In this document: piece after piece, positions 15,943 through 41,429 of the stretch
Numbering within the stretch: the first letter of the stretch is position 1
Layout of the letters: every line of letters starts with the position of its first letter
DNA from: a virus
Direction: 5' to 3' (one strand)
DNA length: 64,000 bases
IMG/VR virus record: IMGVR_UViG_3300045988_143931
Coordinates: 32,001-96,000 of that record
Notes under the pieces: model-generated
Database searches by the model: none
What the model saw: the letters and a program-made list of their open reading frames with translations, nothing else
What the model was told of the DNA's origin: nothing
Translations under genes and position numbers: made by a program

Positions 15943-18000
15943 TTAAAACTTAATCTTCATTACACGCTCTGTTGCACCCTTAACCTTAATAACTAAATCT
16001 GCTCTCTTTGTCATAGAGAATCCAATTCCTGAAAGCTGATCATCAGTATCCTCTACATGACACTTAGCACCTAATGCTTCAAATACTCTCTTGTGCTTCA
16101 TTAAATCATTGTCAAGGAACTCAAGATAGAATCCATTAGGACTTTCGTTATTCACACAATCCTTCAGGAAGAAGAATAAATGTCTATGACCAATTCCATC
16201 CTGCTCGTCAAAATAGTTTGGACTGTAACTAATTACTGATATAGGAACAAACTGATTTGTATTTACACCCCAAATTTCACGACTTGAAATAGATGAATTT
16301 CCTGCTAACTTCTCCTTAATTGAGAAGTTTCCATTCTCATCAAGTGTTACTTCTGCAACCTGAACCTTTTCATCAGTTCTCATTGACTTATCGTAATCAA
16401 ACTTGTAAATTTCTCCATTAAATTCAATCTCTGCTCTAAATCCATGCCTTACGCTTCCTGAATACTGATGTACAAAAAACTTATAAACACCTGGTTTCAT
16501 TCTTGACAAGTCTTCCCAAGTAATATTCTCTACTGCAACCTTTCCATCTGGATGAATAATATCAACGTCCAACTGACCACCCATTCTTGAAACACTTGGC
16601 TTTCTACAATTACTAAAGAAAATTTCATTCTTATCTGGCTCAATACAATGTGCATCAAGGTCGTAATTATCATGACCATCTTCATTCCACTGAATAGAAA
16701 ATCTGAGTACACCATCGACATTGCCGCCAGCAGCTTTTACATTCTGCTTCATATCAGAGTCAGTAATGTTTCCTGAATAAGCCCAAGATAATCCATTATT
16801 CCATTTGAACATTGTCTTAGCGTCTGGATTAACAGGTGCAATCATAGAAACAAAGTTCTTCTCATGTTTATTTTCTACAAAAGCTTCAATCTCCTTTGCA
16901 GTTGGAAGTACCTTATAAATGAAATCCTGTGCTGAAATCTCTTCAACTTTAGAAAACTTCTTAGGACTTACAGCAATATCCTTTTCCATCTGTCCAAAAA
17001 TATCATCTGCACCAACCATTCTTCTTGCAGCACTTTTATTTGAGAACAGTACATTATTTACAGTAATATCATTCAGATTAGCAAATCTTCTCTGCAATGA
17101 ATCCATATATCCAAGTTCTGTAATGGTCTTCTTTGCATCCTCAAGCATTTTCTTTGTAAAAATAGCCTTTGGTCTTTTATAGTTGCTCGGTGCTGTAATC
17201 TGTTCATACTTCTTAACTGCTGTGTCAAGATCCATATCCTCACTTACATTGATAAGAAGTGTTCCAATAGAATGATTTCTAATTCTACCGATAGCCATAC
17301 CTGCTGTTACTGATTTTTCCCAAGCATATAAGTCCTTTTCAGTATCAGAAGTCAGCTTATCATATTCCTTCTTATACTTCTTGAACTCTGTGAGTACGCC
17401 TTTCCACTCTTCGCCCTTGTAAAGTGTATTTGAATTGATAAGTTCAAAAATTGTATCAAGTGCTTCCATAGTAATCTCATCAAGAGAACGCTTAAATACA
17501 TTTCTTGTGTCTCTGAACTGTCCCTTAACTTCCTCATTTGAACAACTACTTCTATTTACGAACTTGCTTGGAAGCTCTAAGAATAAATGATCCCACTGAT
17601 GAGACTTTCCATTAATTTCCTCAAAGTTAAAATCTGTACCAATCTTAGGGAACTTAGTTGTATAAATATCTGTAACTGTATGCGTCTTTACAAAAGCGTC
17701 AAGTGCATCACATACTGGCTGATATGTTGTATCACCAAGATTCAGTTCCCAAATCGTATGAATCTGGTTGTCCTTGATAGTGACAGCAGAACCAATATTC
17801 TTGATAAACTGTCTACAACAACTGCAATCATGCTCTCTGTGCTCTCTGAAAATCTCATTTGTACCAGCAGGGAAGCTATCAAGATATGTATTCCATAATT
17901 CATCCTTATCTACATTTACCTCAAATAAATGTGTAGCCTCTTTCTGCATTTCATCGAAGTGCTTCTGTAAAGCCTTCTTAAACATCATAAATCCATCCAT
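15943..18000 (-). CDS. large conserved-looking protein of unknown function (685 aa)
   Basis: Longest ORF in the window. SD GAAGAGG. Has an HREHDCSCCRQF motif near the N-terminus and a beta-rich C-terminal domain (LRFSIQWNEDGHDNYDLDAHC...LDVDI). No family assigned. Confidence 0.7.
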   Translation of the reverse strand: MDGFMMFKKALQKHFDEMQKEATHLFEVNVDKDELWNTYLDSFPAGTNEIFREHREHDCSCCRQFIKNIGSAVTIKDNQIHTIWELNLGDTTYQPVCDALDAFVKTHTVTDIYTTKFPKIGTDFNFEEINGKSHQWDHLFLELPSKFVNRSSCSNEEVKGQFRDTRNVFKRSLDEITMEALDTIFELINSNTLYKGEEWKGVLTEFKKYKKEYDKLTSDTEKDLYAWEKSVTAGMAIGRIRNHSIGTLLINVSEDMDLDTAVKKYEQITAPSNYKRPKAIFTKKMLEDAKKTITELGYMDSLQRRFANLNDITVNNVLFSNKSAARRMVGADDIFGQMEKDIAVSPKKFSKVEEISAQDFIYKVLPTAKEIEAFVENKHEKNFVSMIAPVNPDAKTMFKWNNGLSWAYSGNITDSDMKQNVKAAGGNVDGVLRFSIQWNEDGHDNYDLDAHCIEPDKNEIFFSNCRKPSVSRMGGQLDVDIIHPDGKVAVENITWEDLSRMKPGVYKFFVHQYSGSVRHGFRAEIEFNGEIYKFDYDKSMRTDEKVQVAEVTLDENGNFSIKEKLAGNSSISSREIWGVNTNQFVPISVISYSPNYFDEQDGIGHRHLFFFLKDCVNNESPNGFYLEFLDNDLMKHKRVFEALGAKCHVEDTDDQLSGIGFSMTKRADLVIKVKGATERVMKIKF

Positions 18001-18106
18001 ATTTTGTACCTCTTCTTTCTTATATTTATTTTTGTTAATTGTTTCTACTGTTACATTCTCTCTTCTAAAAAATTAAAAGGCTATTGAATTACCTTTGAAT
18101 AAGTCG

Positions 18107-18126
18107 GTAGGCTTTAACACCTACCA
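18107..18126 (-). terminator. hairpin at the end of the ABC/PspA operon (weak terminator)
   Basis: GGTAGG-8 nt-CCTACC stem just after the 29-aa ORF. The U-tract is poor. Confidence 0.3.
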
Positions 18127-18135
18127 ACCCTTACA

Positions 18136-18225
18136 TTATTTTTTCTTACGCTTTCCTACAATAAAACCTGCTCCAAAGCATATACCAAGACAGATTAAGA
18201 AAACTCCAATGTTTAATACAATCAT
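18136..18225 (-). CDS. 29-aa single-TM micropeptide, last gene of the ABC/PspA operon (hand-called)
   Basis: ATG 2 nt after the SBP stop, with SD GAGGAA. Product MIVLNIGVFLICLGICFGAGFIVGKRKKK. Confidence 0.45.
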   Translation of the reverse strand: MIVLNIGVFLICLGICFGAGFIVGKRKKK

Positions 18226-18227
18226 AT

Positions 18228-19784
18228 TTATTCCTCAATAATCTTGAATGATATGTCAGTTCTTCTGTTCTTCTGCATATTAGTTTCTGAATCGTTAGGT
18301 GCAACTGGCTTTGTGCCTCCATTTCCTACTGTAACAATTCTATCTGCACTAATACCATTGAGAACAAAATACTGCTTAACTGTTTCTGCTCTATTTTTCG
18401 AAAGGTTAATACCATCTTCATCATCATTATCAGAAGCTATATTTCCTTCAATCTGAATAATCGAGCCATCCAAGACTTTAGCAATTTCAATAAATTCATC
18501 TAATTTAGAAGTTGCATCGCCTGAATCTAAGAATTTTGCTGTATTAGCAATAAAGTCTACAGAAGTTGACTTTGTGAGTAATGCCTTTGCATTTATTACA
18601 TCATTCTGATTAGATTCATTAACAACAGGCTTTGAATCTGTAGATGTATAACCATTTGAATCATACTTAGATGATAACTTCTGAATATACGTGTCATCGA
18701 AAAGAGTATCTATAAGACCTGTATTAACATTCTCTCCCATTGATGTCCAGACTTTACACATATCATTATAAATAGTCTTTGCTGTACCATTAAAAAGCTT
18801 AAGATTGTCTGCGTATGTAGTAAGTTTAGCAGATGCGCAATTATCCTTGACATCCTGATTAGAAGCTGTTGAGAACATTGGCATAACTGATTTGATTGTT
18901 GTCATATCCTTTTCATATAAATCTGCTGCCTGTAAAGCTCCATCAATAAAAGCTGTTACAACATCAGGATATTTCTTTGCAAAATCATTATTAAATAAAA
19001 TACCGTCCATAATTAAGCTAGAAGAACTTGCTGTACTAAATAATATATGAGCATCTGACATATTCTTTGCCTGAGTTAAGTAAGGCTCCCAAGTGGCAGC
19101 TACATCAATCTGTCCAGCGAAAAATGCCTTTGCAGCATCATCAGGTGTTGAGAACATAATTAAATTATTGATAATCTTCTGCTTATCAGCATCAGATAAA
19201 TCCGACTGATTTACAAACCATACTACAAGAGAGTGAGCTTCTGAAAATTCAGGAACACCAATTTTAGCATTAACCAAATCCGTTACAGATGTAATACCTG
19301 ACTTTGCTATGATTCCATCTCCACCATTTGAGAAATTAGTTATATATGGCATAATTACATCTATTCCTGCCGTCTTAAACTTTTCTGAAAGAAACGCTGT
19401 TCTATTAATTGTATATCCTGCTGCATCTAGCTTTTTACTGATAATCGCATTACTTGACTGTGTTGCATCATTTATAATACTTATGTTTACTTTAATTCCT
19501 AACTTATCATAAATCGAATTTTCTTTAGTAGAAAGACCGCCATTAGCGTCTATGATCGGCTTCCACCCGATCCATTCGTCAAGTGATAAATTAATTGTCT
19601 TATCATCTGACTTATCTGTATTAATAACATTTCCATCTTCATCTGTTGTTATGTTGAAGTGTTTACTTGTGACAAATCCCGACTTTAATCCAGCGAAGAC
19701 ACCACCACCAATTAATGCAATAACTAAAACCACAATTAAAATTTTTGAGGCTTTAGTAAGTCTAAATCTTTTTGTATTACTCAT
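18228..19784 (-). CDS. membrane-anchored substrate-binding protein (NMT1/SsuA/TauA-like) fused to an OmpA/MotB-like peptidoglycan-binding domain
   Basis: N-terminal TM helix ILIVVLVIALIGGGVFAGL. The central region has the layout of NitT/TauT-family binding proteins. The C-terminus LSKNRAETVKQYF...GNGGTKPVAPNDSE..NRRTDISF matches OmpA_C logic. Confidence 0.65.
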   Translation of the reverse strand: MSNTKRFRLTKASKILIVVLVIALIGGGVFAGLKSGFVTSKHFNITTDEDGNVINTDKSDDKTINLSLDEWIGWKPIIDANGGLSTKENSIYDKLGIKVNISIINDATQSSNAIISKKLDAAGYTINRTAFLSEKFKTAGIDVIMPYITNFSNGGDGIIAKSGITSVTDLVNAKIGVPEFSEAHSLVVWFVNQSDLSDADKQKIINNLIMFSTPDDAAKAFFAGQIDVAATWEPYLTQAKNMSDAHILFSTASSSSLIMDGILFNNDFAKKYPDVVTAFIDGALQAADLYEKDMTTIKSVMPMFSTASNQDVKDNCASAKLTTYADNLKLFNGTAKTIYNDMCKVWTSMGENVNTGLIDTLFDDTYIQKLSSKYDSNGYTSTDSKPVVNESNQNDVINAKALLTKSTSVDFIANTAKFLDSGDATSKLDEFIEIAKVLDGSIIQIEGNIASDNDDEDGINLSKNRAETVKQYFVLNGISADRIVTVGNGGTKPVAPNDSETNMQKNRRTDISFKIIEE

Positions 19785-19795
19785 ACTAATTCTCC

Positions 19796-20533
19796 TTACT
19801 TGTTATATTTTCTCTTTAAGCTGTCTAAATAATCGTTACTGCTATTTTTCTTAGCTTCAACTTCTGCTCTTGCAAGTTTAGTTGACATTTTGTTGTTATA
19901 TACCACCTTAGATCCTTCAACAATGGCATCCAAATCTCTGTTTTTATCTCTGACAGAATCGAGAAGTTTATCGGTTGTAGTTACATTCTTTAACTCGTCC
20001 ATATCATCATAGACTTCCTGTAACTGTTTCTTCACTTTCATATTCTCCACAACTTCCTTACTTTCTCTCTTTAATTTACGGAGATTCTTTTCACACATTT
20101 CCTGTGCTTCTTTTGCGGTATTCGCTGCATCTTCATATGCTTTTATTAACTCAGAATATCTCTTAATATCAGCCATAATCTCTTCTCTCTCGTCAGCCTT
20201 TAACTGTGCCAATTCAATTTTATTAGCTTTCACAAGAGACTCACATTCAGATTCGACCTTCTCAAGCTTCGATTTAAGATTCTTCATATCTTTCTGCGCA
20301 TTGCTTAATTTACCAGCAGCTACCTTGTAAGCGTTGTCTGCCTTGTTATAAGCATCCTGAGCTTGATCAATTTTTTCACCATAAATGGCTTCTGCTCCTT
20401 CTGGTGTTGTTGCCATATCTTTGATAAATAATCTTGTAATTCCCGAAAATAATGTTCTTGCTTCAGGAAACAGAATAAAAATCAAAATGACAACCGCAAT
20501 TACTAAGATAATAATTAGCTTTCCAAGTTCCAT
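19796..20533 (-). CDS. PspA/IM30-like coiled-coil protein with N-terminal TM helix (tentative)
   Basis: After the TM helix there is ~200 aa of heptad-rich sequence whose order resembles PspA/LiaH. The ATG overlaps the upstream stop context. Confidence 0.45.
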   Translation of the reverse strand: MELGKLIIILVIAVVILIFILFPEARTLFSGITRLFIKDMATTPEGAEAIYGEKIDQAQDAYNKADNAYKVAAGKLSNAQKDMKNLKSKLEKVESECESLVKANKIELAQLKADEREEIMADIKRYSELIKAYEDAANTAKEAQEMCEKNLRKLKRESKEVVENMKVKKQLQEVYDDMDELKNVTTTDKLLDSVRDKNRDLDAIVEGSKVVYNNKMSTKLARAEVEAKKNSSNDYLDSLKRKYNK

Positions 20534-21064
20534 TTACTCATTTCCTCCTTCAATAAATTTGATAAGTCCAGAAATTCTATCAACCTCTGCATTGATATTA
20601 TTCTCTGAAGTCTTCATCTCTGACTGTTGATCTGCTATCTCTTTCTCAAGTCTAGCAATTTCTTTTTTATGATTTTCAATTTCAGCCTGCTTATCAATGA
20701 CTATATTCTCTCCTTCATTTAATATTTTTGACAAAACACTATTAAGCACATCAACACGCTGTTCGCCATCAAGTGTTACATCAGTAACCGTTAAGCCAAA
20801 CACTCCAAGAGTCGCTAAAACTGAACCTCTCTTTGTCTCTGTAACCATTTCTTTTGGAAGAGAATTAATCAGTTCTTCAATCTTGAAAATTGACTTTGAC
20901 TTATCTGATAACTCGTTTTGAGTATAAATATCCTCGATAAGTGTATCTGTATGCACCTCATCAAGCTCAACTAAAACCTCTGTGTCTTCTACAGAATAAT
21001 CAGTGTCTACATCATAATTCTCTTCTTCTGGAACTTTCTCTACGAAAAAGTCTCTAAATCCCAT
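20534..21064 (-). CDS. hypothetical acidic or coiled-coil protein (176 aa)
   Basis: SD AAGGAGG. Acidic N-terminus and C-terminal coiled coil (KKEIARLEKEIADQQSEM). Confidence 0.6.
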   Translation of the reverse strand: MGFRDFFVEKVPEEENYDVDTDYSVEDTEVLVELDEVHTDTLIEDIYTQNELSDKSKSIFKIEELINSLPKEMVTETKRGSVLATLGVFGLTVTDVTLDGEQRVDVLNSVLSKILNEGENIVIDKQAEIENHKKEIARLEKEIADQQSEMKTSENNINAEVDRISGLIKFIEGGNE

Positions 21065-21081
21065 TTTGTTTCCTCCTTAAA

Positions 21082-21693
21082 TTAAAATTCTATAATCACG
21101 TCACACATTTTTTGTGCTTCTCCTTTGCTATGTGTAACCATAATTATTGTGTTATTTGTTTCTTTATGCTGCTTGATAATCAAATCTTGCATTTTTTGCC
21201 TAGTTTCAATATCTAATGCAGATAATGGCTCATCCATAAGAATTATTTCTGGATTCATAAATAATGTTCTTGCTAAAGCAAGTCTTTGTCTCATACCACC
21301 TGATAGTTGTTTTGGATATTTATTTTCATTACCTTCCAATCCAACAATAGAAATCATTTCTTTTGCTCTATCAATATCACACTTATTTATTCTCCCTTTG
21401 ACTTTCTGTGCTATCAGAATATTGTCTAAACACTTTAACCAATCAAATGAAGTGTAATTTTGATGCATCATGTAAATATTATTTTTACTTGCCTTAGTAA
21501 CTAATTCTCCATTTACAACCGCATTCCCACTTAACGGTTTTATCAAACCTGCAATTGTTCTTAGTAAAGTTGTTTTTCCACAACCAGATTCACCTAATAT
21601 CCCATAAATTTTAGAATCAAATTGATAATTAAAATTCTTCAATAAAGGCTTGTCTCTGCTATAGCCTGTATATAACTCATTCAATTCAATCAT
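21082..21693 (-). CDS. ABC transporter ATP-binding protein (SsuB/TauB-like)
   Basis: Walker A GESGCGKTT, signature LSGGMRQR, Walker B ILMDEPLSALD, H-loop VTHS. Confidence 0.9.
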   Translation of the reverse strand: MIELNELYTGYSRDKPLLKNFNYQFDSKIYGILGESGCGKTTLLRTIAGLIKPLSGNAVVNGELVTKASKNNIYMMHQNYTSFDWLKCLDNILIAQKVKGRINKCDIDRAKEMISIVGLEGNENKYPKQLSGGMRQRLALARTLFMNPEIILMDEPLSALDIETRQKMQDLIIKQHKETNNTIIMVTHSKGEAQKMCDVIIEF

Positions 21694-22432
21694 TTATATA
21701 CCTCCATTTAAAAATATGTTTTACTAACCATTTCGCAGCAAAATCAAATATAACACTTATAATCATGATTACGATAATAGCCATAAAAACTAAATCTGTT
21801 CTTCCTCTTGAAGAAGATTGCTGAATTATATAGCCCAATCCGTATTTTGCATTAATTGTTTCTGCTACTGCTATATATGTAAACCCAATTCCATACATCA
21901 TGATGAAACTATTTAATACTCCTGGTAAAGACGCAGGTATTTGTATTCTCCAAATGGTCTGTATCTTATCCATTCCGATTGTTAGTCCTGTATCAATCAA
22001 ATCACTACTGACTTCCTCTAAACATAAAATGACTGATGGCATCATATATACAAAAGTTGCGATAAATAAAAATACTATTTTCATTATTTCATCTATGCCA
22101 AACCACATAATCAACAGAGGATAAAAAGCTGTAACAGGAATGTATCTCATAACACTGATAATTGGACTTAATATATCTTTTGCTACTTTTGAGTTATAAA
22201 CTAAAATTGCAATAGGAAAGGCAATAAATCCTGATATAAAAGTTGCTATGGTTATTCTCAAAAACGAATATTTGATAGCCATTATCAATTGTCCAGTTTT
22301 TAACATTGCAATTAAATCTGTAAATACTATCTTTGGATCTGGAACAAATAATTGATTTACATGTTGCGATGCAATATTCCAAATTATGAGAATGGCTACA
22401 AGTAATGCTATTCTTTTTAAAATAATTTTCAT
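21686..22432 (-). CDS. ABC transporter permease (SsuC/TauC-like, BPD_transp_1)
   Basis: Six predicted TM segments and an EAA-like loop region. Overlaps the ATPase gene by 8 nt. SD AGAGGTGAGGG. Confidence 0.8.
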   Translation of the reverse strand: MKIILKRIALLVAILIIWNIASQHVNQLFVPDPKIVFTDLIAMLKTGQLIMAIKYSFLRITIATFISGFIAFPIAILVYNSKVAKDILSPIISVMRYIPVTAFYPLLIMWFGIDEIMKIVFLFIATFVYMMPSVILCLEEVSSDLIDTGLTIGMDKIQTIWRIQIPASLPGVLNSFIMMYGIGFTYIAVAETINAKYGLGYIIQQSSSRGRTDLVFMAIIVIMIISVIFDFAAKWLVKHIFKWRYIND

Positions 22433-24157: not shown

Positions 24158-24230
24158 TGTGCCATATGGGAGTTGAACCCATGACACCTCGATTAAAAGT
24201 CGAGTACTCTACCTACTGAGCTAATGGTAC
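24158..24230 (-). tRNA. tRNA-Lys (anticodon UUU)
   Basis: Hand-folded cloverleaf. Acceptor GTACCAT/ATGGCAC has one A3:C70 mismatch. D arm GCTC/GAGT. Anticodon stem CTCGA/TCGAG with loop CTTTTAA. T arm ATGGG-TTCAACT-CCCAT. No encoded CCA. Confidence 0.85.
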
Positions 24231-24234
24231 GAAA

Positions 24235-24307
24235 CTAGACTGGTGGGATTCGAACCCACGAATGACAGAATCAAAATCTGTTGTGTTGACCACTTCACCA
24301 CAGCCCA
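24235..24307 (-). tRNA. tRNA-Gln (anticodon UUG)
   Basis: Hand-folded cloverleaf. U1:A72 with G73 discriminator. Anticodon stem ACAGA/TCTGT with loop TTTTGAT. T arm GTGGG-TTCGAAT-CCCAC. Confidence 0.85.
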
Positions 24308-24348: not shown

Positions 24349-25218
24349 TTACTTATCAGTTACAACTGTATTATTTGTTCCTGAAATTGTAACCCAACCA
24401 AACTTATTTCTTGCTTCTGCTTCCTTCATTCTAATAAGCTCATCGGTAATAGAAGAACTTAACTTATTGTTAGCTTCTGCCTGTGCTTGAGCTTCTATGA
24501 GCTGTGCATCGGCTTTAGCCTGCGCTTCTGCCTTAGTTACTTCTGCATCTGCTTTTGCCTTATTAATAGCTGTTTGATTATTAATTTCCTGTGTTTCCGC
24601 AGCCTGCTGTGCGGTAATCTTAGCATTAATCGCTTCCATCGTATTTTCATCTACAGTAATATTAATAAGAGATACATTTGTAATATTAATTCCATATGTA
24701 GAAAATCTTTTATTAAGATAATCTGTTAATGCTGCATTAACATTTGCTCTTTCAGAACCGAGAATATCAGATACCTTATACTGCGCCACGACTTCTTTTG
24801 TCCAAGAAATGATATTAGGCTTAATAAAACTATCTCTTACTTCCTTACCAGATTGTCCTCTAAACCTTGTAAATAAATCAGCGACCTTTTCAGTGTTGTA
24901 CTGATATGTAAATGTTAAATCTAATGTCATAGCCTTACCTTCAGATGAACTAGCTGAAAAACTATCATCATCTTTAGAGTCTCCGTCCTTACCTGCTGTA
25001 AGATATGACTGTTCTAAGCTTACAGAATATAATGTAGTCTTTACTGTGGGTGACTTGAAATGCCATCCCTGTGTTAATACATCACCTTTGATTCCACCCG
25101 ACATACTGTACTGGATTGCAACATATCCCGCTGGAACACGAACTGTTGACTTAAATAAAATTATTGCTAAAAATAGTATCACTATGGCAGATACAACGCC
25201 ACCTACAACTTTCTTCAT
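24349..25218 (-). CDS. SPFH/band-7 (prohibitin-like) membrane protein
   Basis: N-terminal TM helix. SPFH core (VRVPAGYVAIQYS...GWHFKSP...). C-terminal Ala/Gln/Glu-rich coiled coil. Confidence 0.8.
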   Translation of the reverse strand: MKKVVGGVVSAIVILFLAIILFKSTVRVPAGYVAIQYSMSGGIKGDVLTQGWHFKSPTVKTTLYSVSLEQSYLTAGKDGDSKDDDSFSASSSEGKAMTLDLTFTYQYNTEKVADLFTRFRGQSGKEVRDSFIKPNIISWTKEVVAQYKVSDILGSERANVNAALTDYLNKRFSTYGINITNVSLINITVDENTMEAINAKITAQQAAETQEINNQTAINKAKADAEVTKAEAQAKADAQLIEAQAQAEANNKLSSSITDELIRMKEAEARNKFGWVTISGTNNTVVTDK

Positions 25219-25983: not shown

Positions 25984-27453
25984 CTATGCCATTGCAGCAC
26001 AATAATTATCAAAATCTTTCTTAATATATGTATAATTAATTTTCTGTGATGGACTAAAATCAGTCTTTTCATTCTGATAATCTTTCATCCATTTAGAGAA
26101 TTCTATATCTTTCTGAGTTTTATATACATAAGCCATTATTGCAATCAAAGCTGTTTTACATTTCTGATAAATAGGAGAACTTATTCTAACTATATCTTCT
26201 AAATCCTGTTCATAATCATTAATATCTAATTCAGAAATATCTTCACTTACATTATCCTGAACAAACTGTAATACATCAGAACTACCCGTATTCTGTTCTG
26301 ACATATTACTATCTGTTTCATCTTCGTTAGAAGACATAGTATTATTCTCTGTTTCAGATGTGATTTTTTCATTTTCTGAATGAGCTTCTTCCTTATTAAT
26401 ATGTAAATATTCTTCCATAAGCTTGATAAGCATACCAAACTTAGCAAATACAACTTTCTTATCCTTTGTACTTCTGTTACTGTCATATGTATCAAATGAT
26501 TCATTCTCATATTCTTCAAATGTCTTACTATGTAATGTTCTCTGAAATTCATTTAAGAAATCAGCAAACTTAATATCTTCTACATTGTATGAAGTGAATT
26601 TATGAAATGCTGCTAACCAAATAAAACTATTCTTACTATTAAATAACTGTCCGTTTGTGTTTTGATCTATTACATTCTGTAATCTATTAAGTTCCTCTTC
26701 TAATATATTGAATTCCTCTTCTGTGGCATTTTCATTAAGATACTTAGCCATAGCTGCGTTTTTCTTCCAAGAATCAGAATGGAACATTAACATAATAGAT
26801 TCTTCAACCACTCTATTTAGTACTTCTTTCTTGCGCTCTGGAGCTGTGTACTCACCACAATCCAAGAAAAATCTATTCTTTGTTACTCTCTTGAGTGAAT
26901 CTACCACTTTATACATCATTAAAACATTTTTTTGATTTGTATTCATGCTTGTCTGCTTATTATATCTATCAATATGGTAAGCTATTTCTTCATTAGTACA
27001 ATCAAGATGCTTAACTATGTCTACCTGAAAATTATCAAATTCTTCTTTTAATTCATCTGGAAGGTCTTTATACTTCTTACCTCTTAAATCATATTCCACT
27101 ACCTTACCACTGCCATCTTCAGCTTGATATGCAATCATAGGCATTCTCAATGATTTACTTATGGCAAATACATTATTCTTAAACTCTTCTAATACTGTTA
27201 ATCTCTGTAATCCATCAATCAACCAATTTGTAAAACCATCGCCTATTAACTGCTCACATAATTTTACAGAATCAATATCCTCATGCTTAATTACACTGGC
27301 AGCAAGTCCAGATTTTGCCTCGTCCGACCACTGATCAGGCTTTCTCTGTAATGGATGATTCTTATTGATTACATTTGTTCTAAACTGCTTAATCACCGTT
27401 CCTAACATTAACTGTGTCTTTACTACCTTATCTCTTCCTAACATTACTGCCAT
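25984..27453 (-). CDS. DUF262 (GmrSD N-terminal, ParB/Srx-fold) domain protein lacking an obvious DUF1524 nuclease
   Basis: N-terminal WLIDGLQRLT corresponds to the DGQQR signature. The C-terminal third is acidic, Ser/Asn-rich and low-complexity. Confidence 0.7.
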   Translation of the reverse strand: MAVMLGRDKVVKTQLMLGTVIKQFRTNVINKNHPLQRKPDQWSDEAKSGLAASVIKHEDIDSVKLCEQLIGDGFTNWLIDGLQRLTVLEEFKNNVFAISKSLRMPMIAYQAEDGSGKVVEYDLRGKKYKDLPDELKEEFDNFQVDIVKHLDCTNEEIAYHIDRYNKQTSMNTNQKNVLMMYKVVDSLKRVTKNRFFLDCGEYTAPERKKEVLNRVVEESIMLMFHSDSWKKNAAMAKYLNENATEEEFNILEEELNRLQNVIDQNTNGQLFNSKNSFIWLAAFHKFTSYNVEDIKFADFLNEFQRTLHSKTFEEYENESFDTYDSNRSTKDKKVVFAKFGMLIKLMEEYLHINKEEAHSENEKITSETENNTMSSNEDETDSNMSEQNTGSSDVLQFVQDNVSEDISELDINDYEQDLEDIVRISSPIYQKCKTALIAIMAYVYKTQKDIEFSKWMKDYQNEKTDFSPSQKINYTYIKKDFDNYCAAMA

Positions 27454-30082: not shown

Positions 30083-31084
30083 TTACATATTGTTTAACAC
30101 ATCTTTCATCCCCACTGCACCATTTGCATAATTATTAACTGTTGTATTTACATTACTATGTCCTAACTGCTGCTGTACAAATGCAAGATTTCCATTTCTG
30201 TTCATTATACTAGCATAATAATGACGCATCATATGTGGTGTTATACCATTTCCATAATTCTCAAATATCTGTTTGATATTTCTTTCTGTTGTACGAGTTC
30301 CATTTTTATTTACAAACACAGCTTCTGTATCAATAATGTTACTTAATGTGCTTCTGTATTCTAACCACTCTCTTATAGCTTTTAAAGCAGATCCGCTAAG
30401 ATATACCATTCTATTTTGCATTTCTCTGTACACACCTTTACCAAGAATAGTAATATAAGGCATTTCTTCATCTAAATGCAAATTAGATAAATCCAAACCA
30501 GCAAGTTCAGATTCTCTTATTCCAGTTCCTCTTAATACTCGAAAAATAGCAATATTTCTATTTCTTACTGAAATATCCTTTTTCCACATTATTTTTTCTT
30601 CCATATCATTAAGTTGCTTTTCTGTTGGAAGTTTTTTAGTTAAATTGTTTCCAGATGGAATCCCTTTATAAGTTACATCTTTAAAGAATCCATCTTTAAT
30701 TTCAGTTCCCTTCACTCTACTCATATAATCCCAAAAACTACTTATTATATGTTTTCTAGTTTCTAATGTCGTAGGTGACATTCCATTCTGTTCTTTAGTC
30801 TTTAAATATAACGTGATATCTTCTGCCATAATGTCAGTAAAATCTGATGGCTCAATATCTGAAATATTTGTTTTATCAATAAGTTTCTCTTCAATAAACC
30901 AATTGAGCAAATCTACAATAACTCCAAGATAATTTAAAGCACCTGCTTTACTTTCAATTTTAACAGTGAAATATTTTCTCATATATATAGGAAAATTTAA
31001 CTCATCCAACTTCCTATTAAGCTTTTCAGCATTTTTGTTTTGTACTTCTATTTTGTAACACATATTCATCAACCTCACTTTCAT
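30083..31084 (-). CDS. tyrosine recombinase/integrase A
   Basis: Catalytic pattern: GTGIRESEL (R), HMMRHYYAS (HxxR), LGHSNVNTTVNNY (H...Y). The start is uncertain because it overlaps the upstream ORF. Confidence 0.85.
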   Translation of the reverse strand: MKVRLMNMCYKIEVQNKNAEKLNRKLDELNFPIYMRKYFTVKIESKAGALNYLGVIVDLLNWFIEEKLIDKTNISDIEPSDFTDIMAEDITLYLKTKEQNGMSPTTLETRKHIISSFWDYMSRVKGTEIKDGFFKDVTYKGIPSGNNLTKKLPTEKQLNDMEEKIMWKKDISVRNRNIAIFRVLRGTGIRESELAGLDLSNLHLDEEMPYITILGKGVYREMQNRMVYLSGSALKAIREWLEYRSTLSNIIDTEAVFVNKNGTRTTERNIKQIFENYGNGITPHMMRHYYASIMNRNGNLAFVQQQLGHSNVNTTVNNYANGAVGMKDVLNNM

Positions 31085-33570: not shown

Positions 33571-34236
33571 TTATTTTTCACTAAACGAATTATTCTTATT
33601 AGGCATCTCCTCAATGATATCAGAATATTTATTATAGATGTTATTTTCAATTTCTTTTCTAGCTTTAATTGCATCATCTTTGTTAACAAAATAACCTAGA
33701 TGATGATTTTCACCATTAAAATATATTCTAGCCTGCCATTTTTGCTTATCTTTTTTCCATGATACACCAGGATAGCCGCTTGTATTTCTTGAAGTTTTTT
33801 TACCTAAATGAATAAAACTCTCTGCTTTTATGTTGCTATCTGGTAAATATTCTTCAGTTAGACATCCACAAGAATATCTTTTCACTAAATGAGAAATTGA
33901 AAGAGTTATCACATTGCCACATTTACATTTGCATATATACTGTGTACGACCATCTTCTCCTATAGTTGTGTCAATAACGGATAAAAGTCCAAATTTATCA
34001 CCTATTTTAACTCTTCCTTTTCCTAAATGTTTTTCTCTTTGATATTTTTTTTGATAGCACCCACAACTTTTTATTTTTTGCGATGTAATACTACTTGTTT
34101 GTGCATAAAAAATATTACCGCATTCACATTGACATTCCCAATACAATCTATTTTTCCCTTTATATTCTTTATATACTGGTTTAATTACTTTAAAATGTGG
34201 ATATTGTGTATTAGATAACTCTTTTCTCTTTCTCAT
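33571..34236 (-). CDS. AP2-domain DNA-binding protein with duplicated Cys-cluster N-terminus
   Basis: GYPGVSWKKDKQKWQARIYFNGENHHLGYFVNKDDAIKARKE is an AP2 pattern. Two CxCxCG...CGC repeats lie upstream of it. Confidence 0.6.
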   Translation of the reverse strand: MRKRKELSNTQYPHFKVIKPVYKEYKGKNRLYWECQCECGNIFYAQTSSITSQKIKSCGCYQKKYQREKHLGKGRVKIGDKFGLLSVIDTTIGEDGRTQYICKCKCGNVITLSISHLVKRYSCGCLTEEYLPDSNIKAESFIHLGKKTSRNTSGYPGVSWKKDKQKWQARIYFNGENHHLGYFVNKDDAIKARKEIENNIYNKYSDIIEEMPNKNNSFSEK

Positions 34237-34253
34237 TTTCTCTCCTAAAATCA

Positions 34254-34508
34254 CTACTGAAGCTGTTCTTCTATTTCTTTTTCGTTAAGAAATGATAAAT
34301 CATCAATATAAACACACACCTCTTTATTTTCTGTAAGAATCCAAATTACATCTCTTCCATTTCTACAAGTATTTAATGTAATTGTATCATCATTGATCCA
34401 CGATTGAATATTCTCTTCATCCAATTCATAGTTTATTTCATTTAATGCTTCAATAATTGCCTTCTTTTCCCTATCTTCTACCTTTGTGTTTTCGTTCCAT
34501 ACTAACAT
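34254..34508 (-). CDS. hypothetical acidic protein (84 aa)
   Basis: ORF track. SD GGAGGTAAAAG. Confidence 0.6.
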   Translation of the reverse strand: MLVWNENTKVEDREKKAIIEALNEINYELDEENIQSWINDDTITLNTCRNGRDVIWILTENKEVCVYIDDLSFLNEKEIEEQLQ

Positions 34509-35133: not shown

Positions 35134-36153
35134 TTAAAAAATAGATTTTGCAATTATATTAGCAGCCATATCATTATACTGATTTAAATTATTTTTCAAA
35201 TATATCTTTGTTGTTTCGGTTCTAGCATGTCCTAATAACTGCTGAACCACATATATATTTTCATCTGTCTTTCCCAACATAATATTTGCAAACGAAGCCC
35301 TTAATTTATGAGGTGTTACTGAATATCCAAGAGCTTCCTTTGTATATTTTATAACAATATCAGATAATGATCTTTGTGTCATACGAGTTTTTGATTTTGA
35401 AATGAATAACGCATCTTCATTTTTATCTATTATTTTTTCTCGATCACACATCCAATCTAAAATAGCCTTTTCTAATTGAGAACTCATAGTAAAAGTCCTG
35501 TCTTTATGCCCCTTCTCAATTACACTTTTAATAATATGATTTTCAAAATCAATATCTTCAACATTGATTTCGCTTAATGCTGTTTCACGTATTCCAGTTT
35601 GCATAAATAACATCATAATTGCTCTGTCTCTTGATTTCCATTTATATTGCATAGCAACTGACCTTCTATTTCCTGCTCCACATTCTACAGCCAATAGTAC
35701 TTCTTTTAAATCATCTTCATCTAAGAATTTTCTATTAACAAAATCTTCTCCACGAACCCTTTTTATTTTATTCATAGGATTTTCAGTTATATAATCATTC
35801 TCCGTTAAGAAATCAAAAAAACTTTTTAATACACTATGATAACATTTCCTGTAAGATAATGAAGATTGTTTTTTATTTCCATTATTATCTGTTATATATT
35901 CTATTGAATCCAAAAAACGAGTAATGTCAAACTTTGTTATTTCAATAACTTTAATATGTTTAATATCACTCGGATTAATGTAATATAAAAATTTTGCTAT
36001 TTTTCTTATATATTCTCTACATGCTGTTGGTTGCCTTCCTGATTTAAATTCATAATAATATTCTGTTACATATTGTGGTAATAAAGACAATATTTCTTTT
36101 ATATTTTTTTCTATTTGTAATGAATGTTCTAATCTACCTTTCATTTTTATCAC
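35134..36153 (-). CDS. tyrosine recombinase/integrase B (start possibly ATG at 36144)
   Basis: Catalytic pattern: QTGIRETAL (R), TPHKLRASFAN (HxLR), LGHARTETTKIYL (H...Y). Confidence 0.85.
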   Translation of the reverse strand: MIKMKGRLEHSLQIEKNIKEILSLLPQYVTEYYYEFKSGRQPTACREYIRKIAKFLYYINPSDIKHIKVIEITKFDITRFLDSIEYITDNNGNKKQSSLSYRKCYHSVLKSFFDFLTENDYITENPMNKIKRVRGEDFVNRKFLDEDDLKEVLLAVECGAGNRRSVAMQYKWKSRDRAIMMLFMQTGIRETALSEINVEDIDFENHIIKSVIEKGHKDRTFTMSSQLEKAILDWMCDREKIIDKNEDALFISKSKTRMTQRSLSDIVIKYTKEALGYSVTPHKLRASFANIMLGKTDENIYVVQQLLGHARTETTKIYLKNNLNQYNDMAANIIAKSIF

Positions 36154-37843: not shown

Positions 37844-38101
37844 TTATTCCCATTCTCCATTTGTTTTAATCTTGTTAATTACAGGTATTGCTATTTCCTG
37901 CATTACCTGTTTCAGCTCATCCTGCGAAGCTTTTCTTTCCTGTGCTTCGACAAGCTTTGTTGCATCAGTAGGAACTTCACATTTATATTCCATTGAATAT
38001 AATATTATTGCCTCATAAAATTTAGAAACATCTACCGTTTCCACTGCAAACTGAATCTTATGCAACAATTCTGTTTTATTTGCCTGTTCTTCATTAAGCA
38101 T
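37844..38101 (-). CDS. hypothetical protein (85 aa)
   Basis: ORF track. SD AAAGGAGGAG. Confidence 0.6.
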   Translation of the reverse strand: MLNEEQANKTELLHKIQFAVETVDVSKFYEAIILYSMEYKCEVPTDATKLVEAQERKASQDELKQVMQEIAIPVINKIKTNGEWE

Positions 38102-38132
38102 ATTTACTCCTCCTTTCTATTATTATGTATTA

Positions 38133-38351
38133 TTATATCACTATTGCTAATTCCTGCATAGTTTCTATTTTTTCTGTAGCAATTTCTTTACCTTCTGCAA
38201 TAGTCATACAAGAACATAATCTTGTCCATGCATTATAAGCTGTGTTGAATATCATTACATCATACTTCTGATTGAATGAATTAATTTCCATTCCAGCCGT
38301 ATATCTATTCACTATACGTATTTTTATTCCATTTACTCTAAAGTTTCTCAT
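38133..38351 (-). CDS. hypothetical protein (72 aa)
   Basis: ORF track. ATG start chosen. Confidence 0.55.
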   Translation of the reverse strand: MRNFRVNGIKIRIVNRYTAGMEINSFNQKYDVMIFNTAYNAWTRLCSCMTIAEGKEIATEKIETMQELAIVI

Positions 38352-38392
38352 TACAATCACAACCTTTCACTGTAAATTATCCATTCCTTTCA

Positions 38393-38436
38393 ATAAAAAA
38401 AAGAGACTGGATATTTTTTAATCTTTCCAATCTCTT
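38393..38436 (-). terminator. rho-independent terminator
   Basis: 11-bp stem with one mismatch (38401-38411 with 38426-38436) followed by T8 on the minus strand. Confidence 0.75.
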
Positions 38437-38463
38437 AAATGTTCTCTCTAAATTATTCAATTA

Positions 38464-38736
38464 TTACAAAATTTCATTTTGCTTTTCTAATAAAATTAAT
38501 AATGCACTCATTGTCATTTTCTGTATGTATTCATCTTTATCCAATTCTTTTTCAGTTATTGGCTGATCTTCATCAATAAAATCATAATTTACATACAATG
38601 TAACTCCTGAATTATCCTTGCACCATACTGCAACAACTTTGTCACCACCAAATTCTACAATATCTTCTTTAAGCTCTTTGATTAATTCCGAACATTCATA
38701 ACTAATTCCCAAACCTTGTTCATTTATAAATGCCAT
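38464..38736 (-). CDS. hypothetical acidic protein (90 aa)
   Basis: ORF track. SD GGAGGG. Confidence 0.6.
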   Translation of the reverse strand: MAFINEQGLGISYECSELIKELKEDIVEFGGDKVVAVWCKDNSGVTLYVNYDFIDEDQPITEKELDKDEYIQKMTMSALLILLEKQNEIL

Positions 38737-38739
38737 TAT

Positions 38740-39255
38740 TTATCCCTCCAAATTTTTTATAAATCTAAATCCGTTTGCCGTAGTTTTCTTTTTAGAACCA
38801 TCCTTACGATAAAACCAATTGCCTTTTATAATACCTTCTTCAATAACTTCTGTTACTACTGGATGTTTTCTAGTACCAGACCATTCTAAGAAAGCACATT
38901 CCCATCTTTCTTCTGAAGGCTTAGATTCCATTCTTTTCTCTTTTTTATAATCTAAAAGCAATTCCTCAATTTTATCATCTGTCAAATTTTCTATTCTATT
39001 AATATCAAGCGAATAGAATTCTGTTTTATTATAGTGATTACTTGTATGATGCCATAAAGAATATCTCAAGCAAACTTCTTTCAATACTTTTATAGGAAGT
39101 CTTCTTAACTTCTCAATTGAACATTTCAATTCAATTTCTGTATCTTTAATTGTATCAAAAATATTTGCCTTTGTCCACTTACTTAATGGTTTCTCACCAT
39201 CTTCATAAGCTGCAACTGCATTGTTGCTCATCGACCATCCATTATACCCCGCCAT
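38740..39255 (-). CDS. hypothetical protein (171 aa)
   Basis: ORF track. The N-terminus WSMSNNAVAAYEDGEKPLSKW looks like a conserved phage or plasmid motif, but no family is named. Confidence 0.65.
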   Translation of the reverse strand: MAGYNGWSMSNNAVAAYEDGEKPLSKWTKANIFDTIKDTEIELKCSIEKLRRLPIKVLKEVCLRYSLWHHTSNHYNKTEFYSLDINRIENLTDDKIEELLLDYKKEKRMESKPSEERWECAFLEWSGTRKHPVVTEVIEEGIIKGNWFYRKDGSKKKTTANGFRFIKNLEG

Positions 39256-39291
39256 ATTATCAACCTTCTTTCTTACATATTATATCACACT

Positions 39292-39486
39292 TTATTTCTC
39301 ATCCTCAATATCTTCTAAGCTGTCAATTCCTAACTCATCCATAATATCATCACAAAGACAACTTCCATCGCATTCAGCTCCATCATACATAACAGTCATC
39401 TCTTCAATATTTAAAACATAACGACTTTCTTTCTGTTGCTTAAATAATTTTAGTACCTGTCTTAATAAATATTCTTTCCTATCCAT
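39292..39486 (-). CDS. hypothetical acidic protein (64 aa)
   Basis: Start moved to MDRKEYLL, which has SD AAAGGTGG. Confidence 0.55.
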   Translation of the reverse strand: MDRKEYLLRQVLKLFKQQKESRYVLNIEEMTVMYDGAECDGSCLCDDIMDELGIDSLEDIEDEK

Positions 39487-39504
39487 AAATTTTACCACCT
39501 TTCC

Positions 39505-39660
39505 TTAAACAAATTCAATGACAATTGCCTTATAAAATACTCCATCGACATTCTCAATCAATATTGTTTCATCCTGATCGCCTGTCATTATTATTATATC
39601 TTTCACATCTAATTCAATTTCTTCATTATTAAATAATAAGTCTTTAAATCTAATTTTCAT
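39505..39660 (-). CDS. hypothetical protein (51 aa)
   Basis: Start moved to MKIRFKDLL, which has SD GGAGAG. Confidence 0.5.
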   Translation of the reverse strand: MKIRFKDLLFNNEEIELDVKDIIIMTGDQDETILIENVDGVFYKAIVIEFV

Positions 39661-39696
39661 ATAATTTACTCTCCGAAATGTGCTTTTCATCTGGTT

Positions 39697-39906
39697 TTAT
39701 AATTCTAATAAAGAATACGCAACTCTTTCTCTTAATTCATCAATACATTCATTAGGAGTTTTAAATTCTTTAGTTTTTAATCTTGTCCCATTTTTAATTC
39801 CACCACTAACAGAATAAAGTTTCTGTCCTGTTTCCAATGTAATGATATTAATGGAAACACTCTCGTTTTTTACTTCAATAAAGTCTGTTCCAAATATATT
39901 TATCAT
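39697..39906 (-). CDS. hypothetical protein (69 aa)
   Basis: ORF track. SD GGAGG. Confidence 0.6.
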   Translation of the reverse strand: MINIFGTDFIEVKNESVSINIITLETGQKLYSVSGGIKNGTRLKTKEFKTPNECIDELRERVAYSLLEL

Positions 39907-39942
39907 ATTATTAACCTCCGATTCAATCTTGAAATTTCCGTT

Positions 39943-40164
39943 TCATTGCCCAACTTTTATTTCGCTTCTGTCATAATTAGTCTGTATTCCAACAATTCCT
40001 TTTGGACTTTCACATAAAGCCCATCCAAAAGCAAGACAATTATGTAATCTAATGTCAGCTATATCTCTATCGCAACCATAATTATTAACAAGATAATCAA
40101 TTATCTCTTTATCAAAATCTTCTGGATATTTCTGTCCTATATAAAATACTTTTTCTACTTTCAT
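39943..40164 (-). CDS. hypothetical protein (73 aa)
   Basis: ORF track. Confidence 0.55.
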   Translation of the reverse strand: MKVEKVFYIGQKYPEDFDKEIIDYLVNNYGCDRDIADIRLHNCLAFGWALCESPKGIVGIQTNYDRSEIKVGQ

Positions 40165-40180
40165 ATATAATCATTCCTAT

Positions 40181-40411
40181 CTAATTTAATTCCTGTTTAC
40201 ATTCTTCTAACAAATCGTCTACGGTCATTCCATCTGTATTTCTCCACCATAATTGTAAATTATCGTCTTGCGTGTTGACTTCTGCTAAAGGATCATCGAG
40301 CATTGGAATATTTTCATTATCACTTTGCATATCCTGTACAAATGCTTTCTTTGAATCCCATTCGTATTCCACATATTTCCCATCACAATTAATAACAACT
40401 ATATTCAACAT
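40181..40411 (-). CDS. hypothetical acidic protein (76 aa)
   Basis: ORF track. SD GGAGGAA. Confidence 0.6.
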   Translation of the reverse strand: MLNIVVINCDGKYVEYEWDSKKAFVQDMQSDNENIPMLDDPLAEVNTQDDNLQLWWRNTDGMTVDDLLEECKQELN

Positions 40412-40448
40412 AATATTTCCTCCAATCTGTCAGTAAATCATCGTTTCT

Positions 40449-40658
40449 TTAACTTTTCCCGATATTCCAAATATGCATCCGTTTATCTTCACTTACATAT
40501 TCATCTCCCTCTTTCGAGGATTTAGTCCATATAGACACTTTTTCTACTTCTTTCTTTCCATATTCAAGTTCGACATCTGCAAGAAGTTCTGGTAATGTAT
40601 CTATAAAACCATACCCACCATTTCCTGTATCTACTTCAATTCTATATTCATCATTCAT
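40449..40658 (-). CDS. hypothetical protein (69 aa)
   Basis: Start moved to MNDEYRIEV, which has SD GGAGAA. Confidence 0.55.
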   Translation of the reverse strand: MNDEYRIEVDTGNGGYGFIDTLPELLADVELEYGKKEVEKVSIWTKSSKEGDEYVSEDKRMHIWNIGKS

Positions 40659-40689
40659 AATATTTTTCTCCAATCTTCATAGTAAATCC

Positions 40690-40869
40690 TCATTTCATAT
40701 TATTCTCAATTTCTTTTAGTCTCTCTTCTGAACCGCCAAATTCGTAACACTTACATGGTTCATTATCAACAGATACATCCTTTCCGTATTTCTTTCCGAA
40801 ACATCTTCCAAGCCATTCTTTTCTACATAGTTGGCAGTTATGCATATTCATTTCATGTGTTATGTGCAT
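40690..40869 (-). CDS. hypothetical Cys-containing protein (59 aa)
   Basis: Start moved to MHITHEMN, which has SD AAGGAG. Confidence 0.55.
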   Translation of the reverse strand: MHITHEMNMHNCQLCRKEWLGRCFGKKYGKDVSVDNEPCKCYEFGGSEERLKEIENNMK

Positions 40870-40894
40870 AATTATCACTCCTTTTCATATGATT

Positions 40895-41158: not shown

Positions 41159-41184
41159 CATAATAATTCCTCCAATCTTACCAT

Positions 41185-41385: not shown

Positions 41386-41429
41386 ATATCCTCCGTTCTT
41401 ACAAAGAAACTCTTGTTTCAATCCACTAC

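Follow-up and report, generated by a model that had tools for sequence, protein, structure and literature searches.

A six-gene phage operon combining a predicted ATP-binding cassette importer, a PspA-like protein and a substrate-binding protein fused to an OmpA-like domain

Architecture of the operon and its proteins

We analyzed a six-gene operon on a 64,000-nucleotide stretch of viral DNA (IMG/VR record IMGVR_UViG_3300045988_143931, positions 32,001 to 96,000), referred to below as the window. Six open reading frames (ORFs) lie head to tail on the minus strand and span positions 18136-22432, followed directly by a stable hairpin. In gene order, the features are:

21686-22432, minus strand: permease of an ATP-binding cassette (ABC) importer, TauC/SsuC/SaoP-like, 248 amino acids (BPD_transp_1)
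21082-21693, minus strand: minimal ABC ATPase, 203 amino acids (ABC_tran)
20534-21064, minus strand: p176, a cytoplasmic, acidic coiled-coil protein of 176 amino acids from an uncharacterized family (positional ORF, motifs)
19796-20533, minus strand: transmembrane (TM)-anchored protein resembling PspA/IM30 (ESCRT-III superfamily), 245 amino acids (PF04012)
18228-19784, minus strand: signal-anchored fusion of a NitT/TauT-type substrate-binding protein (SBP) and an OmpA-like domain, 518 amino acids (NMT1, OmpA)
18136-18225, minus strand: TM micropeptide of 29 amino acids with a basic C-terminal tail (recurrent motif)
18101-18130, minus strand: stable hairpin, possible terminator or 3'-end stabilizer (folding energy)

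The permease and ATPase genes overlap by 8 nucleotides and p176 abuts the PspA-like gene; the other neighbors are separated by gaps of 17 (ATPase to p176), 11 (PspA-like to SBP-OmpA) and 2 nucleotides (SBP-OmpA to micropeptide). A Shine-Dalgarno-like sequence, AGAGGTGA, lies upstream of the permease ATG. An earlier reading of this DNA, hereafter the original prediction, had taken the six co-directional, overlapping or abutting genes to be one apparent operon, and an ORF check of the window recovered all six as listed above, supporting a single operon. Pairwise comparison with relatives at 80-85% DNA identity gave ratios of nonsynonymous to synonymous substitution (dN/dS) of 0.02-0.2 in all six genes, the 29-residue peptide included, which indicates that all six are real and constrained coding genes. 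The sole higher value, 0.43, was obtained for p176 against the 95%-identical locus L005, where dS is just 0.03. The hairpin, located directly 3' of the micropeptide stop codon, has a 12-bp stem and a folding energy of -18.2 kcal/mol (z = -4.06), and none of 200 shuffled sequences was as stable. Its tail is partly U-rich only, and a simple terminator scan made no call there. Consensus scans of the window for promoters and terminators gave counts no better than those of shuffled sequence.

Profile searches against Pfam matched the permease to BPD_transp_1 (2.8e-22) and the ATPase to ABC_tran (4.2e-28), and the SBP exceeds the NMT1 cut-off, in line with the NitT/TauT-type ABC importer originally proposed. 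Of 62 unique permease homologues, 55 retain the EAA-type coupling loop, DTGLTIGMDKIQTIWRIQIP. None of the 63 unique ATPase sequences lacks the signature LSGG[MQE] or the Walker B motif, 62 of them have the H-loop, and the Walker A motif [AG]xxGxGKT is found in every ATPase except two truncated ORFs (102 and 141 residues). Full-length ATPase homologues comprise 186-218 residues, apart from one of 286 residues and the Lak megaphage ATPase of 329 residues; the ATPase has no C-terminal regulatory domain and a dN/dS of about 0.06. By these motifs and domain matches, the module encodes a complete type I ABC importer with a minimal ATPase whose catalytic motifs are intact. The best NCBIfam relatives of the permease are TauC, SaoP and SsuC, all far under their equivalog cut-offs. 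Because no NCBIfam equivalog match in the module reaches its cut-off (TauC, 107 of 342 bits; SsuC, 84 of 347; SsuA_fam, 78 of 163.5; TauA, 43 of 304), no substrate can be assigned.

The 518-residue protein matches NMT1 at 34.3 bits (cut-off 20.5), OmpA (PF00691) at 52.4 bits (cut-off 27.2), the NCBIfam family SsuA_fam at 6e-22 and phrog_25518 at 2e-214. Its AlphaFold2 (AF2) model, with a predicted local distance difference test (pLDDT) score of 80, contains a TM helix at residues 11-35, a bilobed SBP at 64-368, a disordered linker at about 376-396 and an OmpA-like domain at about 393-514; profile searches and model thus agree on the N-terminally anchored fusion that had been proposed. Using Foldseek, we found the SBP to resemble TauA (6ssy, 1e-14) and SsuA (2x26, template modeling score 0.79), and the structures nearest to its fold are TauA, SsuA, PqqT, Thi5, ThiY, CmpA and NrtA. 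The OmpA-like domain matches PA0833, YiaD, Pal and MotS in the PDB. The basic N-terminus of the protein implies an N-in orientation, which would place both the SBP and the OmpA-like domain outside the membrane. Eleven SBP residues (D69, W71, D106, S152, G154, G155, D156, W232, E233, P234 and D260) are invariant between phage and cellular proteins at about 20% identity, and the polar and aromatic residues among them suggest a conserved ligand site. In OmpA_C domains, diaminopimelate is contacted by a conserved Asp (G-x-T-D) and a conserved Arg (LSxxRA); in the OmpA-like domain studied here, the arginines R465, R482 and R508 are invariant.

The fusion belongs to a large family. An exhaustive search returned 93 cluster representatives at E < 1e-30, many of them full length, at 24-60% identity; the NCBI label for such proteins is [quoted passage not shown]. 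Tandem copies of SBP-OmpA occur in Bacillus phage G (gp249/gp250; L001 5815-9020) and in about ten loci of gut phages (L039, L042, L056, L057 and L060-L065). In loci L024-L030, SBP-OmpA is 63% identical to that of the window, whereas the permease, ATPase, p176, PspA-like protein and micropeptide of the same loci are 86-97% identical. By region (SBP lobes, linker, OmpA domain), identity to the window protein is 79, 65, 35 and 61%. Both dN and dS are raised for this gene, which points to a recombinational swap of the extracytoplasmic component.

The assignment of the 245-residue protein to the PspA/IM30 family had been part of the original prediction and held at the level of the family, of which 10 of 12 members match PF04012 (best E = 8.1e-13); the window sequence on its own falls under the cut-off. 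We therefore regard the PspA assignment as solid for the family and borderline for the window sequence alone, as judged from these profile scores. The PF04012 alignment of the window protein spans profile positions 13-217 of 220, a profile built from 12 homologues matched Vipp1 chains over about 165 residues (8qhv, E = 0.0038; 7o3w, E to 0.006), and the protein matches phrog_33389 at 3.9e-113. Every homologue begins with a hydrophobic TM helix that is followed by basic residues, so that, by the positive-inside rule, the protein would adopt an N-out/C-in topology with its core at the cytoplasmic face. An alpha0-like stretch, LFSGITRLFIKD, comes after the TM helix. Classical PspA, IM30 and Vipp1 are soluble and bind membranes through an N-terminal amphipathic alpha0, whereas the phage protein would be a membrane-anchored variant. 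Its dN/dS is 0.02-0.12. A search of the plasmid collection returned no match to the PspA-like protein, and a BFVD structural search returned no full-length viral match.

The acidic coiled-coil protein and the TM peptide noticed in the original prediction also proved to be constrained and recurrent in related loci. Of 88 loci with the PspA-like gene, 87 have an ORF of p176 architecture at the corresponding position. The protein comprises the N-terminal motif MGxFKxxGLVE, an acidic linker and a block reading IYxQNxLxDxSxSIFKVEELIxSLPxEM, with no TM segment. Its AF2 model (predicted template modeling score 0.30) shows one long helix at residues 93-171 with pLDDT above 90; the remainder is of low confidence, and the acidic N-terminal part is disordered. 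The N-terminal MGxF..GLVE recalls the alpha0 of PspA and Vipp1; the proposal that p176 is a divergent PspA was rejected as unsupported (hhalign probability of 0.2% against the PspA-like family; no PDB or Pfam family match). A small TM ORF lies 3' of SBP-OmpA in 63 of 87 loci, and the micropeptide motif MI(V/I)LNIGxF...G(Y/F)IxGKRK recurs, including in the distant loci L002 and L010; the dN/dS of the micropeptide is 0.05-0.07.

Distribution of the module and its genomic setting

Conservation of gene order in related phages had been set as a check on the original prediction, and about 85 of the 93 loci collected, at identities as low as about 50%, keep the five larger genes (permease, ATPase, p176, PspA-like and SBP-OmpA) in one order with almost unchanged spacing. 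The 117-kb IMG/VR contig UViG_3300045988_145490 has the operon at 97.9% DNA identity over 7.1 kb and encodes six identical operon proteins. A pattern scan detected the module on 185 IMG/VR contigs; the same type of scan over one genome per species, covering 185,579 bacterial and archaeal species, gave 6 full-length matches. The relatives include IMG/VR contigs of 100-215 kb and prophages of cultured Lachnospiraceae and Oscillospiraceae. Flanking genes are mostly not shared among related loci, which suggests that the module moves as a cassette.

A tblastn search of GenBank phages with SBP-OmpA identified gp249/gp250 of phage G at 44-49% identity, a contig from a human faecal phage at 50%, every Lak megaphage at 23-27% over the full length, and a 735-kb phage; a DNA-level search of the phage collection gave no match. 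Gene order is preserved in the virulent Bacillus phage G (gp243 permease, gp245 ATPase, gp246, gp247, gp249, gp250), and PHROGs includes families for its homologues. The Lak megaphages and the 735-kb phage retain SBP-OmpA, permease and ATPase. In Lak-B5 (L003 4320-9864) and Lak-A2 (L099) the order is a coiled-coil protein designated cc229, a 355-residue TM and coiled-coil protein, a 113-residue ORF, SBP-OmpA, small ORFs, permease and ATPase. The small ORFs are paralogous and about 150 residues long; Lak-B5 has three of them, and Lak-A2 has room for one. The cc229 protein has p176 architecture, with the N-terminal sequence MGFNIKSLFVVEED, an acidic linker and a coiled coil, and the 355-residue protein, encoded upstream of SBP-OmpA, is multi-TM. 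We considered these two proteins as homologues of p176 and the PspA-like protein and rejected this for weak similarity (local hmmsearch E = 0.004; hhalign 18% for the 355-residue protein and 2.6% for cc229), treating them as analogues in architecture and position only.

Copies in bacterial genomes have phage-type surroundings in most cases examined. A 3.5-Mb contig of Clostridium sp. 12(A) carries a 71%-identical copy, flanked on one side by a DUF8224 gene and nicotinamide adenine dinucleotide (NAD)-salvage genes and on the other by genes for a single-strand annealing protein (SSAP), DnaB, primase, a PD-(D/E)XK nuclease and PolIII-alpha; owing to these phage-type flanks, we interpret it as a prophage. 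The isolates Hominicoprocola fusiformis CLA-AA-H269 and Dysosmobacter segnis BX15 show similar phage contexts around the module. Among the bacterial loci whose flanks were examined (L004, L006 and L007), the copies lie among phage-type replication and NAD-salvage genes, and L008 and L011 share the layout of L007; the L010 contig, at 7.9 kb, has a flank too short to judge. The NAD-salvage genes adjoin the module in L004 (2881-6394), L006 (13462-17556), L007 (225-3523) and L087 (341-1090) and encode a nicotinamidase-like isochorismatase, phosphoribosyltransferases, nicotinate phosphoribosyltransferase (NAPRTase) and NAD synthase; they are absent from the window. A tRNA-Gln gene lies a short way upstream of the module in L006; the window has one between the SPFH gene and the operon.

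In a Lachnospiraceae metagenome-assembled genome (MAG; L009 7270-11548, DAMAMW010000009.1), the five genes stand alone in the chromosome, with host-like GC content, between MecA-PFL-PflA-peptidase C26 and DnaB-RplI-GdpP; no phage gene or tRNA lies near this module. The L009 copy may represent either the origin of the phage module or a phage cassette that has been domesticated. The great majority of copies are phage-borne, with one stand-alone chromosomal copy known.

The window itself has a GC content of about 31% and is coded almost wholly on one strand as far as about 56 kb. Besides tRNAs, it encodes two DNA methylases, an RNA ligase and a radical S-adenosylmethionine protein, as well as two tyrosine recombinases and four proteins of which three are ParB-like and one is Rep-like; no structural genes were found in its 64 kb. 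The features placed outside the operon are:

15943-18000, minus strand: DUF8224 protein, 685 amino acids (phrog_1735), directly downstream of the operon
24158-24307, minus strand: tandem tRNA-Lys(UUU) and tRNA-Gln(UUG), between the SPFH gene and the operon
24349-25218, minus strand: SPFH/Band-7 membrane protein (Band_7, 6e-25; phrog_200), 2 kb upstream of the operon
25984-27453, minus strand: 489-residue protein adjoining the SPFH gene (PADLOC NsnA match, 3.6e-13, residues 10-350)
30083-31084 and 35134-36153, minus strand: tyrosine recombinases (Phage_integrase), 4 kb apart
33571-34254: HNH endonuclease between the two tyrosine recombinases
52202-53134, minus strand; 60052-61026 and 61030-61875, plus strand: ParB-like ORFs
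54760-54834, minus strand: tRNA-Val(AAC)
61895-62680, plus strand: weak Rep-like ORF

The DUF8224 protein has full-length homologues in 555 phage records, including phages of Bacillus, Salmonella, Klebsiella, Caulobacter and Microcystis, with inconsistent annotations ("galactose-binding domain-like", "putative RNA polymerase"). Given these homologues, the gene content of the window and the 117-kb IMG/VR contig with its 97.9%-identical operon, the element is a large phage or resembles one, and it may be temperate or plasmid-like. The ParB-like and Rep-like ORFs sit around the switch in coding strand and GC skew at about 56-58 kb, which suggests plasmid-like replication and partition and a possible phage-plasmid lifestyle. 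Small ORFs and two tRNA genes separate the SPFH gene from the operon. Of 93 related loci, 11 have an SPFH gene no more than 10 kb from the module. The 489-residue protein, which has no Pfam or PHROG family match, is a candidate defense-related gene on the strength of its NsnA match. From about 38000 to 56000, the minus strand holds a long head-to-tail run of small ORFs of 60-130 residues with nearly no family matches; an alternative genetic code was considered for the ORF-poor look of this region and rejected, as the standard code yields a dense array of small ORFs.

A possible envelope function and its alternatives

We tentatively favor, without going so far as to call it probable, the interpretation that the operon is a self-contained accessory envelope module, mainly of large phages and prophages, in which envelope maintenance or remodeling is coupled to solute uptake or sensing. 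This interpretation draws on the domain calls, the intact motifs, the constraint on all six genes, the co-inheritance of the genes in distant phages and the pairings seen in cellular operons. It also draws on the SPFH/Band-7 gene 2 kb upstream, given that bacterial PspA is repeatedly partnered with Band-7 proteins (Ravi et al. 2024, mSystems, PMC11237479). In the proposed arrangement, SBP-OmpA would be held in the membrane by its signal anchor and tied to peptidoglycan by its OmpA-like domain. The wall-tethered SBP would capture or sense a small ligand and dock on the permease, with the ATPase driving uptake. The PspA-like protein, which its TM helix would anchor on the cytoplasmic side and which p176 would probably organize, would assemble on the inner leaflet at importer sites, where it could stabilize, repair or reshape the host membrane during a long large-phage infection or lysogeny. 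The parts of the module would thereby act jointly at the membrane-wall interface. A broader form of this idea, that large phages of Gram-positive and Gram-negative hosts alike carry a ligand-responsive, ESCRT-III/PspA-type remodeling or repair device built around a peptidoglycan-tethered ABC transporter, seems to us possible and rather doubtful. In gut Clostridia phages, phage G and Lak megaphages, such a trans-envelope machine would sense or import a ligand from the wall space and, in response, reshape or protect the membrane of the host.

Several observations weigh against the envelope interpretation. Genes that share an operon need not form one complex. The PspA-like protein of the window scores 25.2 bits against PF04012, under the cut-off of 33.9, the TM coiled-coil protein of Lak shows no more than weak similarity to that family (hhalign probability of 18%, as given above), and p176 has no detectable homologue in terms of Pfam, NCBIfam, PHROG or PDB family matches. 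Cellular operons of the PspA type include an AAA+ ATPase, and none is present in the phage operon or among its neighbors. The canonical Asp of the OmpA-like peptidoglycan motif is variable: the window has GNIASD at this position, phage G has GNVNNTG, and Lak and P0082 have GNTD. Finally, L002 (MT835556, 1469-5644) and L010 (140-4237) have no ATPase gene in the cluster, with a 61-residue ORF alone between permease and p176 in L002, and keep all other components, micropeptide included; ATP-driven transport may therefore be non-essential to the module.

The module could instead be a plain auxiliary importer that supplies a nutrient or solute for phage replication, with the PspA-like protein offsetting the stress of extra membrane proteins. 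We consider this unlikely, although the transporter is complete and its motifs are intact, the SBP fold is nearest to TauA, SsuA, ThiY, Thi5, NrtA and CmpA, and the polar and aromatic residues of the SBP are invariant between phage and cellular proteins. The tandem duplication of SBP-OmpA, as seen with SBPs of differing specificity, and the NAD-salvage genes that adjoin the module in several relatives would also fit an importer. Sulfonate or taurine, nitrate or bicarbonate, a thiamine or pyrimidine precursor, and a cationic osmolyte or polyamine are candidate cargoes, and are proposed with the same reserve. Such an importer leaves unexplained why the PspA-like protein, p176 and the micropeptide match the transporter in conservation and are never found apart from it, why the SBP would need a peptidoglycan tether, and why the cellular cousins are constantly paired with PspA, Snf7 or TelA. 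Moreover, the ATPase-less variants retain the remaining genes, and no NCBIfam equivalog cut-off is reached. Exclusion of superinfecting phages or competitors, by a wall-anchored surface complex that senses or blocks envelope breach by phages, bacteriocins or lysins, appears less likely still. It would account for a mobile cassette with variable flanks on phages and prophages, for a related operon on plasmids, and for a divergent SBP-OmpA allele (63%) amid operon genes that are 87-97% identical, a pattern typical of conflict surface proteins; the allele swap could equally mean a changed ligand specificity. The OmpA/MotB-like anchor resembles ZorB of Zorya at the domain level only, and, although a gene with a PADLOC NsnA match lies nearby, PADLOC returned generic ABC and MotB-domain matches and no known defense system for the module. 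Nothing effector-like, such as a nuclease, a pore-former or an NADase, is encoded in it, and the module is present in the virulent phage G.

We give very little credence to two further explanations. PspA-family proteins counter loss of the proton-motive force and membrane lesions, and the module joins membrane and wall, so it might stabilize the envelope against the phage's own holin and endolysin and time lysis, the PspA-like protein delaying membrane collapse until assembly is complete. This is very improbable: no holin, endolysin or spanin gene adjoins the module in the window or in the relatives examined, an ABC importer has no obvious place in such a scheme, and the chromosomal copy and cellular cousins exist without lysis genes. 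A host operon captured passively at a prophage boundary, with no phage-specific role, would be in keeping with the stand-alone chromosomal copy of host-like GC in L009, and is equally improbable. Phage-type genes lie on both flanks in the window (DUF8224, tRNAs, methylases, RNA ligase), the 185 IMG/VR contigs contrast with 6 full-length matches in the species genomes, of which L009 alone is chromosomal, and purifying selection acts across deep phage divergence, phage G included. The phage setting assigned to the operon in the original prediction is thereby sustained, and the passive host-operon reading is largely refuted.

If the parts do work together as an envelope module, this would be phage-encoded PspA/ESCRT-III membrane-stress machinery wired to a transporter and the cell wall, a link proposed for cells from gene neighborhoods only, and the first phage-encoded PspA system. 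With five proteins, a micropeptide and no AAA+ ATPase, the phage version is compact. It is abundant among phages of the human gut and occurs as well in experimentally accessible systems, namely phage G with its Bacillus host and prophages of cultured Dysosmobacter, Hominicoprocola and Clostridium sp. 12(A). It would thus offer a tractable entry to the cellular PspA/TelA-ABC-OmpA operons described below, and could show what these operons do and how very large phages keep the host envelope functional while a long infection lasts. Were it a nutrient importer only, it would still be among the few complete ABC importers carried by phages.

Comparison with cellular operons and known systems

The coupling of an SBP-OmpA fusion to a PspA-like gene, for which the original prediction named no described precedent, does have precedents in cellular operons, and NCBI names and PHROGs families exist for the components. 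Ravi et al. [quoted passage not shown] Handelsmanbacteria (OGG56892.1) and Archangium (AKJ06548.1). The authors propose a link between membrane remodeling and solute transport in which OmpA binds peptidoglycan; the words "virus" and "bacteriophage" do not occur in that paper. Compared by gene content, these operons and the phage module both encode a TM-anchored protein of the PspA/Snf7 superfamily, an ABC ATPase, a permease and SBP-OmpA. The cellular operons also carry a separate soluble PspA and tandem AAA+ ATPases (one inactive, one active), whereas the phage module has neither; the latter has p176 and the TM micropeptide and differs in gene order. Beyond this paper, nothing relevant emerged from the literature searched on phage G, Lak and ABC, PspA or OmpA proteins of huge and jumbo phages. 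The FtsZl1-vWA-OmpA system of Makarova and Koonin 2010 was considered as a precedent and rejected as a different system.

We also identified a second cellular form, a TelA-vWA-SBP/OmpA-ABC operon, in four loci (L094 4975-15860, L095, L096 and L097) on the Vibrio alfacsensis plasmid pSEA2 and the chromosomes of Marinomonas sp. THO17, Desulfobacter and a Parcubacteria MAG; no description of it was found in the searched literature. Its order is a hypothetical protein of about 200 residues (in Vibrio and Marinomonas), an ABC ATPase, an SBP of 560-590 residues with a weak OmpA match, vWA, SBP-OmpA, a TM and coiled-coil protein, TelA, a free SBP and a permease, with the ATPase placed after the permease in Desulfobacter and Parcubacteria. 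Compared with the phage proteins, SBP-OmpA matches over both domains (profile E = 9e-28), and the ATPase and permease are 39% and 23% identical. The fusion protein, when clustered at 90% identity, falls into about 105 clusters from many phyla. Like phage modules, the operon has more than one SBP-OmpA paralogue, a TM and coiled-coil protein after SBP-OmpA and a helical protein of the membrane-stress type. It differs in having TelA in place of PspA, as well as vWA and a free "urea-type" SBP, whereas the window has no TelA or vWA; these operons are chromosomal or plasmid-borne and occur in Gram-negative and candidate phyla radiation (CPR) bacteria. Homology of their TM coiled-coil protein to the PspA-like protein was rejected (hhalign 1.8%). 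PspA and TelA are both membrane-stress proteins. The recurring theme, as read from gene content, would be a wall-tethered NitT/TauT-type importer together with a helical membrane-stress protein, be it PspA, Snf7 or TelA.

Among known importers, TauABC, SsuABC, NrtABCD/CmpABCD and ThiXYZ share the permease family, ATPase motifs and SBP fold with the phage module. The module differs from these systems in that its SBP carries both a membrane anchor and a fused OmpA-like domain and its ATPase has no C-terminal domain. Cyanophage pstS encodes a phosphate-binding protein, a lone SBP that serves the host PstCAB. It is likewise a phage SBP for an ABC importer, whereas the module described here also brings the permease, the ATPase and membrane-stress components. 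In the B. subtilis PspA-YdjGHI and LiaIH systems, dedicated membrane partners recruit a soluble PspA homologue, whereas in the phage module a TM anchor is part of the PspA-like protein itself, which is coupled to an ABC importer. The ydj operon links PspA to an SPFH/Band-7 protein (as cited in PMC11237479), a link paralleled by the SPFH gene 2 kb upstream of the operon in the window. Set beside these systems, the phage version appears to be undescribed: a compact variant that dispenses with the AAA+ ATPase and adds p176 and the micropeptide.

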